A DNA stretch of 4,543 bases, from the IMG/VR virus record IMGVR_UViG_2695420746_000012; one strand, 5' to 3'. Every line of letters starts with the position of its first letter. Position 1 is the first letter of the stretch. The DNA is from a virus. Its lineage: Duplodnaviria; Heunggongvirae; Uroviricota; Caudoviricetes. The notes below the pieces were generated by a model. That model was not told where the DNA came from. It worked only from the letters and a program-made list of their open reading frames with translations, and did not search any database. Position numbers and translations under genes: made by a program. Shown here piece after piece: positions 1 through 4,543 of the stretch.

Positions 1-11
1 CGCGTTATTAG

Positions 12-55
12 TTATCTTATTCTCAAATTGTGTTACGATAATCCGAGCGGATAAT
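12..55 (+). promoter_or_regulatory. Candidate telN promoter elements (uncertain)
   Basis: Two GATAAT hexamers (37-42 and 50-55) lie within a GATAATC direct repeat (37-43, 50-56). TTGTGT at 28-33 is a possible -35 for the second one with a 16-bp spacer, but that would start transcription inside the telN Shine-Dalgarno, so the true promoter may lie upstream of the window. Confidence 0.2.
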
Positions 56-68
56 CAGGAGAGGAAAG

Positions 69-1964
69 ATGAGCAAAGTAAAAATCGGTGAATTAATAAA
101 CTCACTTGTTAGCGATGTTGAGTCAATAGATAACTCTGACCGTCCTCAAGGGGAAAAAACAAAAAAAATAAAGGCTGTTGCATTAAAATTTAAAAATGCA
201 TTATTTAATGACAAGCGAAAGTTTAGGGGGAAAGGATTAGAAAAAAGAATTACAGCCAACACATTCAATGCCTATATGAGCAGGGCCAGAAAACGGTTTG
301 ATGATAAACTTCATCATAGCTTTGAAAAAAATATACATCGCCTATCTGAAAAGTATCCTTTATATAATGAGGAGCTATTGTCATGGCTTTCTCTACCTGC
401 TGCCGATATTCGCCAAAGAATGTCAGCTTTACAGACAAAATTAAAATTAATTCTCCCTTTATCAGAAGATTTATCTAATATAAGAATTGGTGATAACAAA
501 AGTCATAATAAGTTATTAAAATTATCAAATAAATATAAAGAGTGGCAATTCGCCATTTCTGATTTAACTAGCGATAACTGGAAAGATAAGCGCGATTATT
601 TATATAAATTACTACAGCAAGGATCTGCCTTACTTGAGGAGTTGAATCAGCTAAAAGTTAACCATGAGATTCTCTATCATCTTCAACTAAGCCCTGCCGA
701 ACGAGCATCTATCCAGCAACGATGGGCGGACGTTCTGCACAATAAGAAACGTAACGTGGTGGTCATTGATTACCCTAAATATATGCAAGCTATTTACGAT
801 ATTATAAATAGCCCTGCTACATTAAATAATCTAAACACTCGTTCAGGTATGGCTCCTTTGGCATTTGCACTTGCTGCATTGTCAGGAAGACGAATGATTG
901 AGATTATGTATCAAGGTACATTTACTGTTTCTGGTAAGTATACCGTTGATTTTTTAGGCCAAGCTAAAAAAAGAACTTCTGATGATATAACCAGAAAAAT
1001 ATATACATTATGCGAAGCAAAAACATTTGTTTATTTAATAAATGTACTTCGCTCATGCCCAGCAGCATCTGATTTTGATGATGTCGTTAAAGGTTATGGA
1101 GATAACGACACACGCTCTGAAAACGGACGTATTAATGCCATATTAGCAAAGGCTTTTAACCCGTGGGTTAAATCATTTTTCAAAGATGACCGCCGTGTTT
1201 ATAAAGATAGTCGTGCTATTTATGCCCGTATTGCGTATGAAATGTTTTTCCGCGTAGATCCTCGTTGGAAAAACGTAGATGAGGATGTTTTCTTTATGGA
1301 AATTTTAGGCCATGACGATGAAAACACTCAATTACACTATAAGCAATTCAAGCTGGCCAACTTCTCAAAGACATGGAGGCCAAATACTGGAAACGAAAAT
1401 ACCAGGCTGGAAGCATTGCAGCAGCTTGATGACAAAATGCCTGGATTCGCCAGAGGAGATGCCGGGGTTCGTCTGCATAACACAGTTAAGCAGCTGGTAG
1501 AGCAGGACCCCTCTATAAAAATCACGAACAGCACTCTAAGAGCATTCAAATTTAGCCCAACAATGATTAGTCGATACCTGGAATTTGCTGCTGATGCTCT
1601 GGGGCAATTTGTTGGCGAAAATGGACAATGGCAGCTGAAAATAGATACTCCAGAAATCGTTATGCCTGACGAAGAAGAGCTGGTAGCAATACCTGAACAG
1701 ACGGATGAATTATCAGAGGATGACGATCTGGATGACGACGAAATTGAGATAGAGGAAGAGGAAGAGGAAGAGAGCGTAGAAGAACAGCAACCGCCCGCGC
1801 CTTCTTCACCTGTATCTAAGCCGGTATTTAAGCCTGTGAGAAATATTGGTGATGGCTCATACGTTGTTGAGTTTCATTATAATGGCCAGAATTATGCTTG
1901 GTCCGGCAGTGCAAACAGCCCTATGTCAGCAATGCAGTTAGCATGGCTGACATATTTCGGATAA
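69..1964 (+). CDS. telN: Protelomerase (telomere resolvase) TelN, N15 family
   Basis: 631-aa ORF with Shine-Dalgarno AGGAGAGGA at 57-65 before the ATG at 69. From memory it matches phage N15 TelN along its whole length, including MSKVKIGELI at the N-terminus, SRAIYARIAYEMFFRVDPRW, and the C-terminal YAWSG motif. Tyr424 (LHYKQF), Arg275, Lys300 and His415 sit at positions I recall as TelN active-site residues. An acidic Glu/Asp-rich linker precedes the C-terminal domain, as in TelN/TelK. Confidence 0.95.
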   Translation: MSKVKIGELINSLVSDVESIDNSDRPQGEKTKKIKAVALKFKNALFNDKRKFRGKGLEKRITANTFNAYMSRARKRFDDKLHHSFEKNIHRLSEKYPLYNEELLSWLSLPAADIRQRMSALQTKLKLILPLSEDLSNIRIGDNKSHNKLLKLSNKYKEWQFAISDLTSDNWKDKRDYLYKLLQQGSALLEELNQLKVNHEILYHLQLSPAERASIQQRWADVLHNKKRNVVVIDYPKYMQAIYDIINSPATLNNLNTRSGMAPLAFALAALSGRRMIEIMYQGTFTVSGKYTVDFLGQAKKRTSDDITRKIYTLCEAKTFVYLINVLRSCPAASDFDDVVKGYGDNDTRSENGRINAILAKAFNPWVKSFFKDDRRVYKDSRAIYARIAYEMFFRVDPRWKNVDEDVFFMEILGHDDENTQLHYKQFKLANFSKTWRPNTGNENTRLEALQQLDDKMPGFARGDAGVRLHNTVKQLVEQDPSIKITNSTLRAFKFSPTMISRYLEFAADALGQFVGENGQWQLKIDTPEIVMPDEEELVAIPEQTDELSEDDDLDDDEIEIEEEEEEESVEEQQPPAPSSPVSKPVFKPVRNIGDGSYVVEFHYNGQNYAWSGSANSPMSAMQLAWLTYFG

Positions 1965-1975
1965 AGCATACGGTA

Positions 1976-2008
1976 AAGGCACCGAATTATCGGTGCCTTG
2001 TTGTGTTG
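1976..2008. terminator. Intrinsic terminator hairpin between convergent telN and the antirepressor remnant
   Basis: Perfect 10-bp inverted repeat AAGGCACCGA (1976-1985) / TCGGTGCCTT (1990-1999) with loop ATTA, followed on the + strand by the T-rich GTTGTGTTG (2000-2008). It starts 12 bp after the telN stop; on the - strand it is followed by the weaker TTTACCGTATGCTTTAT. Confidence 0.6.
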
Positions 2009-2009
2009 C

Positions 2010-2174
2010 CTACCTCGCCTGCCCCTTTTCGTCCTCATCAAACTTTCTGATGGCCGTAGAATCAATACCCGACGCCATACACACATCAGATGCAACAAAC
2101 CACGGTTCGCCGTTAATCATCACTACACGAACCTGATGCTCTTCCGGAAAGGAAAAGACTGCTAACGCGCTCAT
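2010..2174 (-). pseudogene. Truncated phage antirepressor, BRO-N/Ant N-terminal domain fragment (54 aa)
   Basis: My own translation of the - strand (below the ORF track's length cutoff): MSALAVFSFPEEHQVRVVMINGEPWFVASDVCMASGIDSTAIRKFDEDEKGQAR. It carries the BRO-N hallmark (FxF...R-hydrophobic-I-[DN]-GEPWFVA-DV...DDEKG) and has a strong Shine-Dalgarno AAGGAGG (2180-2186, - strand) 5 nt before the ATG at 2174. It stops at 2010-2012, right against the telN terminator hairpin, whereas full antirepressors are roughly 200-300 aa. Confidence 0.6.
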
Positions 2175-2404
2175 TCAGCCTCCTTATCGTGCAGCAATTG
2201 CGACGAGAGCGATGCTGAATACCCCTGTGCTTCGTGTGTTAGCTCACACGCAATTTGAAGGAGTTTCCCTGCTTCTGAGAGATAAATCGACGCCTCACAA
2301 CTGGAGATTGTCCGATGGGCTGATGATACGAGCGCATAGACCTGAGCCAGACGTTCATCCAACGATTCCAGCAGGCCAACAGTGTTCATTTTTACCTGAT
2401 TCAT
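2171..2404 (-). CDS. Hypothetical 77-aa protein, translationally coupled upstream of the antirepressor fragment (Icd-like by position only)
   Basis: ORF with Shine-Dalgarno GAGGTGG about 6 nt before the ATG at 2404. Its TGA stop overlaps the antirepressor ATG (ATGA at 2171-2174). No sequence family recognised; the placement matches icd in P1 immI / N15 immA. Confidence 0.5.
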   Translation of the reverse strand: MNQVKMNTVGLLESLDERLAQVYALVSSAHRTISSCEASIYLSEAGKLLQIACELTHEAQGYSASLSSQLLHDKEAE

Positions 2405-2565
2405 GCAGCCACCTCGCGCACCGGAATACGGGCAGACAATACCAGGACAAACCGGCTGGCGAACTGGCGACGAGCTTCCCGTTCAGATGACGCGATAGTG
2501 GAAAGATGATGGATGTGTGACTTTTTGTCTGTGCGAACGACTGCCGCAAATTTGAATTTGAACAT
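2401..2565 (-). CDS. Small leader ORF (54 aa from ATG 2565), ORFx-like, coupled to the next gene
   Basis: The ORF track starts this frame at a GTG (2613) inside an RNA hairpin; the first ATG is at 2565 with a weak AAGAG Shine-Dalgarno. Its TGA stop overlaps the ATG of the 77-aa ORF (ATGA at 2401-2404). Protein from the ATG: MFKFKFAAVVRTDKKSHIHHLSTIASSEREARRQFASRFVLVLSARIPVREVAA. Whether it is translated is uncertain. Confidence 0.3.
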   Translation of the reverse strand: MFKFKFAAVVRTDKKSHIHHLSTIASSEREARRQFASRFVLVLSARIPVREVAA

Positions 2566-2589
2566 GGTATGCACTCTTGTTTGGAAGAA

Positions 2590-2700
2590 CAGTGCTACCA
2601 CCAGAGTTCTCACGCTCTAAGGGGGTGGTAGCCCAGACGGGGGTGAGAATACCGGCCCAAACGATACCGGCCAGCCTTTCGGCTGCCCCGCCTGAGCCAC
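2590..2700 (-). ncRNA. Candidate structured regulatory RNA / leader (c4/CI/CA-like immunity RNA region); boundaries approximate
   Basis: In - strand sense: a 5-bp hairpin with GAAA tetraloop (CAGCC-GAAA-GGCTG, + coordinates 2672-2685); a 9-bp stem GCTACCACC/GGTGGTAGC (2594-2602 / 2624-2632) enclosing a 4-bp hairpin with loop CGUGAGAA; and a single-stranded UUCUCAC (2643-2649) complementary to that loop. It sits directly upstream of the ORFx-like RBS. Confidence 0.3.
2606..2615 (-). repeat. 10-nt motif GCGTGAGAAC (- sense), copy 2, in a hairpin loop (stem AGAG/CTCT, 2603-2618)
   Basis: Exact 10-mer also present at 2780-2789. Here it lies in the loop of a 4-bp hairpin nested within the 9-bp stem 2594-2632. 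Confidence 0.5.
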
Positions 2701-2730
2701 CATAATTCGGATATGCGCAGGCTTATATAC

Positions 2731-2757
2731 ACACAAAAAAACACGCTGGCGCGTGTT
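2731..2757 (-). terminator. Intrinsic terminator within the leader of the antirepressor operon
   Basis: - strand: 7-bp stem (+ coordinates 2740-2746 / 2751-2757, AACACGC/GCGTGTT), loop of 4 nt, followed by UUUUUGUGU (+ strand A-run 2733-2739). It lies between the two GCGTGAGAAC hairpins. Confidence 0.45.
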
Positions 2758-2776
2758 GTGCGTCGCTTGGGATATT

Positions 2777-2792
2777 CGGGTTCTCACGCCCG
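2777..2792 (-). repeat. 10-nt motif GCGTGAGAAC (- sense), copy 1, in a hairpin loop (stem CGGG/CCCG)
   Basis: Exact 10-mer at 2780-2789, flanked by the 4-bp inverted repeat CGGG (2777-2780) / CCCG (2789-2792). Same loop as copy 2 but a different stem sequence, i.e. compensatory pairing. Confidence 0.5.
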
Positions 2793-2812
2793 GCTGCGGG
2801 ATTTACCGCAGC
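2793..2812. promoter_or_regulatory. Operator-like palindrome GCTGCGG-N6-CCGCAGC
   Basis: 7-bp perfect inverted repeat separated by 6 bp (GATTTA), immediately downstream (- sense) of the candidate promoter. Could be a repressor operator or the 5' hairpin of the leader RNA. Confidence 0.3.
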
Positions 2813-2818
2813 GGAGTA

Positions 2819-2848
2819 ACTTTACCGTCAAAACGACGCACACGTCAA
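2819..2848 (-). promoter_or_regulatory. Candidate sigma70 promoter for the leader / antirepressor operon
   Basis: - strand -35 TTGACG (+ coordinates 2843-2848), 18-bp spacer, -10 TAAAGT (2819-2824). A second TTGACG at 2826-2831 has no good -10. Weak match, inferred mainly from position. Confidence 0.2.
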
Positions 2849-2868
2849 TAATTTGCAAAGACATTTTA

Positions 2869-2900
2869 CCCCGTGACCAGTCACGGGGACAGGTGTTTTT
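2869..2900. terminator. GC-rich hairpin with flanking A/T runs; probable terminator separating the four-gene operon from the antirepressor module
   Basis: Inverted repeat CCCCGTGA(C) / (G)TCACGGGG (2869-2888). On the + strand it is followed by ACAGGTGTTTTTAT; on the - strand it is preceded by an A-run and followed by TAAAATGTCTTTG. It lies 62 nt downstream of the - strand operon stop (2950), so it plausibly ends that operon, but the U-tract is better in + orientation. Confidence 0.4.
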
Positions 2901-2949
2901 ATAGTTTGCTTGAACGAGTGATCAGAAGTTGATCGTTAATCAAAGGCCA

Positions 2950-3237
2950 TTACGGATTAAGAGAGTGGAAATACCTAACTAACTTACCGGCATCATCACA
3001 TTTTTCTTTATCTTCTTCCTTAACATAGCCGCGACAGAAGGCTGAATAAAATTTCGCATTTTCAGAAGCAAAAGCAGCCGTCGAAAGGAGCAGTTCTTTG
3101 CATGATTCTTTTGATGCAGCATCGGGATTATTTTTACATGCAAGCTCCGCTGATGAGTTAATAACAGAAATGCTATCTTCCTGGGCATAAACCGCAGCAG
3201 AAAAGGCAAAACATAAAACCAAAATAAAACTCTTCAC
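2950..3237 (-). CDS. Small secreted protein (95 aa, predicted signal peptide, 4 Cys in mature part), unknown function
   Basis: The ORF track begins this frame at a GTG (3261) with no Shine-Dalgarno. A GTG at 3237 is preceded by a strong AGGAG (3243-3247) with a 5-nt spacer, giving MKSFILVLCFAFSAAVYA|QEDS..., a typical Sec signal peptide. The mature part is Lys/Glu-rich with four cysteines. Last gene of the operon. Confidence 0.55.
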   Translation of the reverse strand: MKSFILVLCFAFSAAVYAQEDSISVINSSAELACKNNPDAASKESCKELLLSTAAFASENAKFYSAFCRGYVKEEDKEKCDDAGKLVRYFHSLNP

Positions 3238-3257
3238 TTTATCTCCTGTAACAGTTA

Positions 3258-3659
3258 TCACAACTCAATCAACTTTTTAGCATCAGCCATACGCTTCAAC
3301 CAGTAATCAACAATCGGTTGCTCATCCACAGAATGTTTACCTGGTATAACTCGCCAGCTGTCTGCCGAAAGGCTACCGTATCTATGCGGGAAAAGGCATT
3401 TCTTTAGCTCCTGCCATGTGCTAGGAAAACCGTCTGCCAAAGTGCCAATTAACAGAAAAGGGACAAAAATCAGGGCTACAAACCATCGGGCAAGAAAGTG
3501 CTCAACAATAACCTCTTCACCGTTATAGTAATACGCATACGTATCCCATATACGAATTTTCCTTACCCTAAAAATGGCCTTATGCTGAGAACGACTTAGC
3601 TTGATGCGAATGTATCCCTTATCCAAGAGGGATTGGTGTTTGTATGATTGAACAGCCAT
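3258..3659 (-). CDS. Hypothetical membrane protein (133 aa from ATG 3659; one central TM helix)
   Basis: The track starts this frame at a GTG (3671) overlapping the upstream gene; the first ATG (3659) is 2 nt after the upstream stop and is preceded by GTGGGG. It has a basic N-terminal region (IRIKLSRSQHKAIFRVRKIRIW) and a hydrophobic segment WFVALIFVPFLLIGTLADGF. No family recognised. Confidence 0.5.
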   Translation of the reverse strand: MAVQSYKHQSLLDKGYIRIKLSRSQHKAIFRVRKIRIWDTYAYYYNGEEVIVEHFLARWFVALIFVPFLLIGTLADGFPSTWQELKKCLFPHRYGSLSADSWRVIPGKHSVDEQPIVDYWLKRMADAKKLIEL

Positions 3660-3661
3660 TT

Positions 3662-3988
3662 TTAACCCCACTCACCATCAGCAAACAAAGCGTTATACTC
3701 TGACAATGGTAGACGGTTGCCCTCGATGTAGAGATTCAGTTCATACTTCGTCTCCGGGTTTTCCTTGTCGGCTCGTTCCCAACGCTCAGCAGCCTTACAC
3801 GCCAATAATTCCACTGCTTTCAGATAATCCTCCGTACGGAACCAGCCAAAGATAAGGCCACGATCTGTTACAGCCCAGGCAACCTTTTTTTCTTCCTCCT
3901 GGATAGCCTTAATGCGTCGATCGCATTCATCCCGGCAAAACTGCAGCTGACGGTAATCAAGTTTGTCCAAAAATGCAGTAGTAGACAT
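3662..3988 (-). CDS. Hypothetical soluble protein (108 aa)
   Basis: ATG at 3988 preceded by Shine-Dalgarno GGGGAG, which lies in the last codons of the upstream gene, 4 nt after its stop. No hydrophobic segment; charged and helical-looking. No family recognised. Confidence 0.55.
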   Translation of the reverse strand: MSTTAFLDKLDYRQLQFCRDECDRRIKAIQEEEKKVAWAVTDRGLIFGWFRTEDYLKAVELLACKAAERWERADKENPETKYELNLYIEGNRLPLSEYNALFADGEWG

Positions 3989-3992
3989 ATTT

Positions 3993-4184
3993 TTACTCCC
4001 CGTTCACCGAAAAATCACGATAGAAACATTTCCACATACGATAAGTCTGCGCGAGTTGTTCACCACGAAACATCGCCTTCCTGGCCTTCATGTTTTCCTT
4101 GTGAGACTTTCGATCTATGAACCAAAACCATTGCTGGAACACACAAAGCAAGAGACACAAAGATAATATCCACTGATTACCCAT
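3993..4184 (-). CDS. Hypothetical small membrane protein (63 aa, N-terminal TM helix)
   Basis: Taking the ATG at 4184: MGNQWILSLCLLLCVFQQWFWFIDRK..., an N-terminal hydrophobic helix followed by a basic tail. The Shine-Dalgarno is weak (AGGG about 9 nt upstream). The same frame stays open upstream across the IS2 boundary, so the true 5' end is uncertain and the gene may be IS-truncated. Confidence 0.4.
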   Translation of the reverse strand: MGNQWILSLCLLLCVFQQWFWFIDRKSHKENMKARKAMFRGEQLAQTYRMWKCFYRDFSVNGE

Positions 4185-4220
4185 AGAAAGCGCCCTGCTC
4201 TTCGTAGCTGCATGGGCTAT

Positions 4221-4261
4221 TAGACTGGCCCCCTGAATCTCCAGACAACCAGTATCACTTA
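4221..4261 (+). repeat. IS2 left terminal inverted repeat (IRL), approximate extent
   Basis: Terminal approximately 41 bp of IS2 beginning TAGACTGGCCCCC; the right-hand copy lies outside the window. Confidence 0.7.
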
Positions 4262-4311
4262 AATAAGTGATAGTCTTAATACTAGTTTTTAGACTAGTCA
4301 TTGGAGTACAG

Positions 4312-4543
4312 ATGATTGATGTCTTAGGGCCGGAGAAACGCAGACGGCGTACCACACAGGAAAAGATCGCAATTGTTCAGCAGAGCTTTGAACCGGGGAT
4401 GACGGTCTCCCTCGTTGCCCGGCAACATGGTGTAGCAGCCAGCCAGTTATTTCTCTGGCGTAAGCAATACCAGGAAGGAAGTCTTACTGCTGTGGCCGCC
4501 GGAGAACAGGTTGTTCCTGCCTCTGAACTTGCTGCCGCCATGA
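4312..4543 (+). CDS. insC: IS2 OrfA (transposase regulatory protein InsC), 5' part only
   Basis: ATG at 4312; translation [77 protein letters not shown]... is the IS2 OrfA N-terminus with its helix-turn-helix. The ORF runs off the window end with no stop, which is why it is absent from the ORF track. Confidence 0.9.

Follow-up and report, generated by a model that had tools for sequence, protein, structure and literature searches.

Translation start and predicted export of a four-cysteine cargo protein of an N15-like phage-plasmid

Where does translation begin in the last of four small co-directional minus-strand genes of an N15-like phage-plasmid, and what kind of protein does this gene encode? 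The question was raised by a stretch of viral DNA of 4,543 nucleotides (IMG/VR record IMGVR_UViG_2695420746_000012), referred to here as the window, in which a mechanical list of open reading frames (ORFs) gave the gene a 103-aa product beginning at GTG 3261. The original prediction held that this start is wrong and that GTG 3237 opens the frame of an exported protein. Coordinates of the main features are listed in Table 1, and the gene under study is called the target.

The window belongs to a linear, N15-like phage-plasmid of Escherichia coli. Its closest annotated relatives are plasmid CP056845.1 (99.9%) and Escherichia phage PhiR46_1 (PV340565.1; 96% across window positions 1-4221). A literature search on PhiR46_1 or the target gene found nothing. 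The window start was considered as a hairpin telomere and rejected; telL of PhiR46_1 lies about 180-200 nt upstream of telN, and the window begins 68 nt upstream. The target occupies a cargo interval with repA on one side and the isrK/C4/icd/ant anti-immunity locus on the other; besides the two RNAs, this minus-strand locus holds antirepressor remnants and an icd-like gene. Of the Bro-N antirepressor gene only a 54-aa stub is left (2010-2174, minus strand), as in PhiR46_1 and CP056845.1. Bro-N proteins of 259-266 aa stand at the position of the stub in locus L015 and in NZ_JBVFXE010000005.1, so that the anti-immunity operon is truncated in the lineage of the window. A RefSeq CDS named 'ash family protein', placed in the interval of the isrK/C4 RNA genes (L026 2114-2284; L027 2193-2315), may be a false protein annotation.

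A promoter-like site, TTGACG-18-TAAAGT (2848-2819), was observed upstream of the isrK and C4 RNAs, and a GC-rich hairpin sits between it and the cargo cassette. The hairpin was not flagged in a terminator scan and has no T-run on either strand; it may therefore be a non-canonical terminator, or it may serve as an insulator or for protein binding. Within the small-gene cluster of the window the scan gave no promoter-like site. Hydrophobic segments that look membrane-spanning by eye are present in the 133-aa protein encoded upstream of the target (FLARWFVALIFVPFLLIGTL) and in a 63-aa protein (WILSLCLLLCVFQQWFWF; 3993-4184, minus strand), and judging from these segments most of the cluster may be envelope-associated. 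Neither of the two proteins has been assigned to a functional family.

In the window, an IS2 copy (IS3 family; plus strand, from about 4222 to 4543, with an orfA/InsC-like frame from 4312 carrying HTH_Tnp_1) stands between the small-gene cluster and repA. Colinearity with PhiR46_1 and CP056845.1 ends at 4221, 44 nt short of the repA stop of PhiR46_1, and IS2 is thus inserted in the 3' end of repA. It is oriented away from the small-gene cluster and is absent from all fetched relatives. The insertion may affect both how RepA ends at its C-terminus and how the four genes downstream are transcribed.

Table 1. Features of the window discussed in the text.
Feature	Position	Strand	Description
Protelomerase, 631 aa	69-1964	+	Domains TelK_N, muzzle, catalytic, stirrup
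C4 antisense RNA	2621-2707	-	Anti-immunity locus
isrK RNA	2736-2812	-	Anti-immunity locus
GC-rich hairpin	2869-2888	-	Perfect 8-bp stem, 4-nt loop (CCCCGTGA-CTGG-TCACGGGG); shared conserved backbone
Swappable cargo cassette, 322 nt	2928-3249	-	Shine-Dalgarno sequence, CDS and 22 nt; replaced in seven relatives
True CDS of the target, 95 codons and stop	2950-3237	-	GTG 3237-3235, TAA 2952-2950; the 288-nt CDS of public records
Mature protein, 77 aa (predicted)	2953-3183	-	Cys at mature positions 16, 28, 50 and 62; pI about 5.1; predicted three-helix bundle
Sec-type signal peptide, 18 codons (predicted)	3184-3237	-	MK followed by SFILVLCFAFSAAVYA; predicted cleavage between VYA and Q; rule-based
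Spurious 8-codon extension	3238-3261	-	Without Shine-Dalgarno sequence; partly backbone DNA
Shine-Dalgarno sequence AGGAG	3243-3247	-	5-nt spacer ATAAA (3242-3238) before GTG 3237
Upstream co-directional gene, 133 aa	3258-3659	-	ATG 3659; 402-nt CDS in CP056845.1

The translation start of the target gene

The minus strand reads TTGATTGAGTT, followed by TGA (3267-3265), GTT, GTG (3261-3259), ATA ACT GTT ACA GGA GAT AAA, GTG (3237-3235) and AAG AGT. As had been predicted, GTG 3237 follows AGGAG at a spacing of 5 nt, GTG 3261 has no Shine-Dalgarno sequence, and a start there would place eight extra residues before the hydrophobic core. Pairing with the anti-Shine-Dalgarno 3' end of the 16S rRNA amounts to -7.4 kcal/mol at GTG 3237 versus -2.2 kcal/mol at GTG 3261; the first value is reached by only 4.9% of strand positions in the window and the second by 53%. 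The window holds five matches to AGGAG-N4-8-RTG where 1.2 would be expected, and three of them stand at genuine starts of genes, namely those of telN, the ant stub and the target. On this reading AGGAG directs initiation 5 nt downstream, and GTG 3261 is simply the first codon resembling a start that follows an in-frame stop, in the backbone 3' flank of the neighbouring gene. TTG 3222 was also considered as a start and was rejected; it is without a Shine-Dalgarno sequence (-2.4 kcal/mol), and the n-region of the signal would be lost.

The start region was compared across 23 loci, comprising the window, IMG/VR contigs, plasmids and complete E. coli genomes. AGGAG-ATAAA-GTG is invariant in all of them. 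The extension begins with GTG-ATA at ten loci, GTG-ATG at nine and GCG-ATA at four; given the GCG and an in-frame TGA two codons upstream, GTG 3237 is the sole possible start at those four loci. A point unmentioned in the original prediction is that GTG 3261 and the stop codon TGA of the upstream gene (3260-3258) overlap as GTGA. Start/stop overlaps of this type can support translational coupling. The GTGA overlap is confined to the 4 of the 23 loci whose poly-A run at 3274-3278 is A5 and not A6, and at the A6 loci (19/23) the upstream gene stops 9 nt earlier. By this 1-nt difference the upstream protein ends either in ...AKKVD (131 aa) or in ...AKKLIEL (133 aa), the latter with the GTGA overlap. 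A5 is probably a true allele and not a sequencing error, since it was found in four separate records (the window, CP056845.1, NZ_LR883007.1 and NZ_JBVFXE010000005.1). From the stop of the upstream gene to GTG 3237 there is a gap of 20 nt.

It had been considered that homologs might consistently start at the upstream codon. Distant homologs (29-47% identity) were found to start at the position equivalent to GTG 3237, with M-K/R-K/S immediately before the hydrophobic core. Locus L015 has an ATG start with the Shine-Dalgarno sequence GGGAGG (-11.6 kcal/mol), and a stop codon precedes this start by four codons; the start of L011 is a GTG with GAGGGGGG (-11.8 kcal/mol), and L022 and L023 have ATG starts with pairing of -5.9 kcal/mol. 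Some database gene calls extend further upstream and read "GD(RD)VK...", which looks like the GGAGA and GTG arrangement translated through.

The 95-aa (288-nt) CDS is present in all 13 annotated records examined, including PV340565.1 and CP056845.1, and is annotated even where an upstream in-frame ATG exists. RefSeq proteins with this CDS are WP_001386898.1, WP_044069045.1, WP_001542487.1 and WP_046788843.1. Positions 1-95 of the 95-position profile phrog_26765 match residues 9-103 of the long ORF (E = 2.9e-63). The correction of the start is therefore already public in RefSeq and GenBank, and the start is wrong only in the mechanical longest-ORF track. This list, which takes the first start after a stop, overshoots likewise at the 133-aa gene and at the icd-like gene. 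The 133-aa gene starts at ATG 3659 (-8.2 kcal/mol) and not at GTG 3671 (-3.1 kcal/mol), and phrog_15458 matches it from residue 5 of the long ORF; the icd-like gene (minus strand) is annotated from ATG 2565 (54 aa) and not from GTG 2613.

Five independent lines of evidence agree that translation starts at GTG 3237, and the 103-aa start of the ORF track is wrong, as originally claimed: the strength of the Shine-Dalgarno sequence, the variation among the 23 loci, the breakpoint of the cargo cassette described below, the starts of the distant homologs and the public annotation. Initiation at GTG 3261 by translational coupling, to which the GTGA overlap in the window and a still workable N-terminus (MITVTGDKVK and the hydrophobic core, net charge +1) lend something, is already close to refuted by the missing Shine-Dalgarno sequence (-2.2 kcal/mol), the restriction of the overlap to the four A5 loci, the change to GCG behind a TGA in four loci, the sharing of 3250-3261 as backbone with elements that carry another cargo gene, the stops or lack of a start at that place in distant homologs, and its use by none of the annotated records examined. 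The 103-aa form would have a workable signal peptide of 26 residues and an identical mature protein, so that the product is unaffected by the choice of start; the correction matters only for annotation hygiene.

The predicted exported protein and its family

The precursor from GTG 3237 has 95 aa and reads MKSFILVLCFAFSAAVYA followed by QEDS. By rule-based assessment, it opens with MK and 16 uncharged residues (mean Kyte-Doolittle hydropathy 2.23) and continues with V-Y-A and then Q-E-D. It thereby shows the features of a substrate of the Sec pathway and signal peptidase I: a positive n-region, a hydrophobic h-region, small residues at -3 and -1 and no lipobox. A lipoprotein was considered and rejected; the Cys of LVLC has Leu at -1, which is not a lipobox, and this Cys is not conserved. 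The n/h/AxA layout is kept in 22 homologs with divergent sequence. The signal foreseen in the original prediction (MK, core and AVYA before Q) was thus recovered and is conserved, as was the mature part of about 77 aa with four cysteines, which has exactly 77 aa and cysteines invariant in the 22 homologs. The conservation of both signal layout and cysteines supports an exported product; export and the cleavage site are inferred from the sequence.

Eighteen residues are short for a Gram-negative Sec signal, which weighs against the best explanation. A short signal with a 16-residue uncharged stretch could also be an uncleaved signal anchor, tethering the protein to the inner membrane. We consider this improbable; sixteen residues are short for a membrane span, and a small-x-small motif (VYA, ASA, ANA, SFA, ALA, ATA or ISA) with a polar or acidic residue is conserved in all homologs. 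This pattern after a hydrophobic stretch is typical of signal peptidase I sites. With a cleaved signal peptide, which we prefer, signal peptidase I would cut the 95-aa precursor after VYA, and an acidic, all-helical protein of 77 aa would be released into the periplasm.

The AlphaFold2 model of the mature part has helices at residues 4-16, 22-53 and 56-75, with a pLDDT of 80.7 and a pTM of only 0.54. In this predicted model the two helix-helix turns lie at opposite ends of the bundle, each with a Cys pair on its flanks, so that C16-C28 and C50-C62 would be the only geometrically sensible disulfides. The four invariant cysteines would most likely pair in two disulfides, one stapling each turn between the helices of a three-helix bundle.

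An exhaustive HMMER search and a subsequent profile search identified about 20 full-length relatives of 91-102 aa, all of them named "hypothetical", in Citrobacter, Klebsiella, Salmonella, Pseudescherichia and metagenomes. The four cysteines are invariant in the alignment of 22 sequences (C-x8-11-C ... C-x11-13-C). A profile search of genome contigs with the family alignment gave only three loci. Close relatives differ at 15 of 288 sites, 8 of them synonymous and 7 non-synonymous, which, as a rough reading only, suggests moderate purifying selection. The full-length match phrog_26765 is the target's own family, to which PHROGs gives no assigned function, and the weaker matches phrog_21025 and phrog_27673 are probably distant prophage homologs. 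No fitting Pfam, NCBIfam or PADLOC family was found for the target protein. Weak concordant matches to DUF2385/TIGR02301 (E about 0.06-0.11) were seen in only one of the 22 family members and were discarded as noise, at 13.5-14.4 bits against the Pfam cutoff of 25 and 13.3 bits against the NCBIfam cutoff of 42.55. A small uncharacterised family of predicted exported four-Cys proteins in phage cargo slots is thus delineated.

A replaceable cassette and the genomic slots of homologs

In seven related phage-plasmids (from E. coli, E. fergusonii and E. albertii) another gene fills the slot of the target. Backbone homology to L042, L043 and L044 stops at 3250 and resumes at 2927, indicating that the gene travels as a 322-nt cassette, which begins 2 nt before AGGAG. 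The backbone includes GTG 3261 and the extension's first four codons, and this DNA is likewise found beside the unrelated cargo gene. The alternative cassette encodes a protein of 257-270 aa with the start MRNKKTTALLLSLLLLSGC and a lipoprotein-type signal (L042 2027-2839; also L043 and L044), for which no Pfam, PHROG or PDB match was found; given this signal, both alternative cargoes are predicted envelope proteins. The target gene is rare: among 5,426 complete E. coli genomes 14 have it, in each case on a plasmid of about 46 kb. A discrete insert that is replaced between conserved flanks, with homologs inserted in tail operons, is what is expected of a moron or cargo gene. The target is a self-contained 322-nt cargo cassette in the variable interval between repA and the anti-immunity locus. 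The equivalent interval between RepA and the protelomerase of Klebsiella telomere phages holds lysogen-expressed cargo, including toxin-immunity pairs (PMC12042878).

An ortholog of 44% identity lies in the same interval between repA and the anti-immunity locus of a divergent N15-like element, with other upstream neighbours. More distant homologs are found in prophage tail operons; in three lineages they stand immediately upstream of the tape-measure gene, one lies between tail genes I and J, and a further one, in a decayed prophage, follows a tail chaperone. Terminator-like hairpins stand on both sides of the Klebsiella homolog, and the region upstream of it gave no promoter-like site. Since an exported protein cannot be a virion-assembly factor, the tail-operon homologs are accessory inserts. 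The slot between chaperone and tape-measure genes is that of the HK97 gp15 exclusion moron (PMC3594210).

Other accessory genes were observed in the tail-operon slot (L013 10797-11675; L011 4112-5624; L039 2294-4471). They include a HipA_2-like gene with a 293-aa gene, Arc/Bro-N/ORF6N antirepressor genes and, nearby, a TIR-domain gene, and the region between tail chaperone and tape-measure genes looks like a hotspot for cargo and defence. At L015, in a divergent N15-like element, a second copy of the C4 antisense RNA (3839-3927; 52.5 bits, gathering score 45) was found about 118 nt upstream of the ortholog ATG, in addition to a normal isrK-C4 pair downstream; the window has no second C4 copy. 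A C4-type leader may precede the ortholog of L015 in its transcript or regulate it.

Possible roles at the cell envelope

Taken together, a start at GTG 3237 and an exported four-Cys helical cargo protein of an N15-like phage-plasmid are very probably the correct explanation of this locus. We commit to the reading of the product as a predicted exported periplasmic accessory protein. Its most likely role, proposed tentatively from location, export and analogy, is superinfection exclusion at the level of the envelope. The lysogen would make the protein, which would keep out superinfecting phages at the envelope, for instance by binding to a component of the tail tip or tape measure in transit through the periplasm. 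In prophages the homologs hold accessory slots, usually right upstream of the tape-measure gene. A bolder and rather doubtful extension of this proposal is that the target is the founding member of a family of periplasmic, disulfide-stapled three-helix proteins, carried in swappable cargo slots by temperate phages and phage-plasmids of Enterobacteriaceae, which would block superinfection by siphophages through interception of the tail tip or tape measure. If true, this mechanism of exclusion would have no common descent with Spackle, Imm, Cor/Llp or HK97 gp15. Against the exclusion role, PADLOC gave no match for the target, and no partner gene co-occurs with it in the contexts examined; against expression in the lysogen stand the lack of promoter-like sites in the cluster and, in this window, the IS2 between cluster and repA.

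HK97 gp15 resembles the target in being a small envelope-targeted protein from a single-gene insert. There is no homology between the two: gp15 is a YebO-like inner-membrane protein whose expression from the prophage has been shown, whereas the target is a predicted periplasmic four-Cys protein with a cleaved signal.

The main alternative is an exported periplasmic protein with a purpose other than phage exclusion, serving the host or the element, such as immunity to a toxin aimed at peptidoglycan or envelope (bacteriocin or T6SS effector), colonisation or stress, and we regard it as unlikely. Small helical, disulfide-bonded periplasmic immunity proteins exist, and the alternative cassette is likewise an envelope (lipoprotein-type) gene. 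The presence of toxin-immunity pairs in the equivalent interval of the Klebsiella telomere phages also points in this direction (PMC12042878). However, no accompanying toxin gene was found in any context examined, no structural match to solved immunity proteins was obtained, and the recurrent position beside tail genes fits classical exclusion morons better. The telocin/immunity locus of the Klebsiella phages shares with the target the RepA-protelomerase interval, a variable cargo site and a linear phage-plasmid (PMC12042878). The telocin immunity protein is an inner-membrane protein of four hydrophobic helices paired with a toxin, whereas the target is predicted to be a lone, small, soluble exported protein without a toxin.

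Exclusion by the target has a counterpart in public annotation, as PV340565.1 names the gene product 'Spackle exclusion protein'. T4 Spackle, a periplasmic inhibitor of the gp5 tail lysozyme, has a 97-aa precursor with a 22-residue signal and a compact mature part of 75 aa with five helices and a single pair of cysteines (PMC7650644, PMC7677548). We consider it very unlikely that the target is a Spackle homolog acting on the tail lysozyme of superinfecting T4-like phages. The annotation, the similar sizes (97 vs 95 aa for the precursors, 75 vs 77 aa for the mature proteins) and the combination of a signal peptide with an all-helical, disulfide-bonded periplasmic protein are in line with such a relation (PMC7677548, PMC7650644). 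Membership in the Spackle family was nevertheless rejected by direct sequence, profile and three fold-library tests. A Spackle-like lysozyme inhibitor is the one concrete form of the roles suggested in the original prediction (binding of an envelope receptor or inhibition of an incoming enzyme), and it failed all homology tests; a Spackle-like mode of action without common descent, through periplasmic binding of an incoming phage component, may apply. Using the Spackle (gp61.3) sequence from AF158101, BLASTP against the target gave E = 31, and hhalign of the family profile against Spackle gave a probability of 12%, with the first 14 signal-peptide residues alone aligned. Spackle was not found in sequence and profile searches of the PDB at E <= 10, and three fold searches returned no Spackle chain among the matches listed.

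What the two proteins share is that both are phage-encoded, with a cleavable signal (predicted in the target) and a helical mature part of about 75-77 aa. Only the signal peptides are alike in sequence (MKKFIFATIFALAS vs MKSFILVLCFAFSA), and this likeness may be the origin of the label. In place of the five short helices of Spackle, three long helices are predicted for the target, and four invariant cysteines are found in place of the single Cys29-Cys81 pair. Spackle is the product of an early gene of a lytic phage, whereas the target is cargo of temperate elements, and no sequence, profile or fold similarity connects their mature parts. The label "Spackle exclusion protein" is unsupported and should not be propagated. 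The family recurs in moron slots of prophages as well as in the cargo interval of N15-like phage-plasmids, and the target is therefore a reasonable and cheap candidate for a phage-exclusion or envelope-modifying screen.
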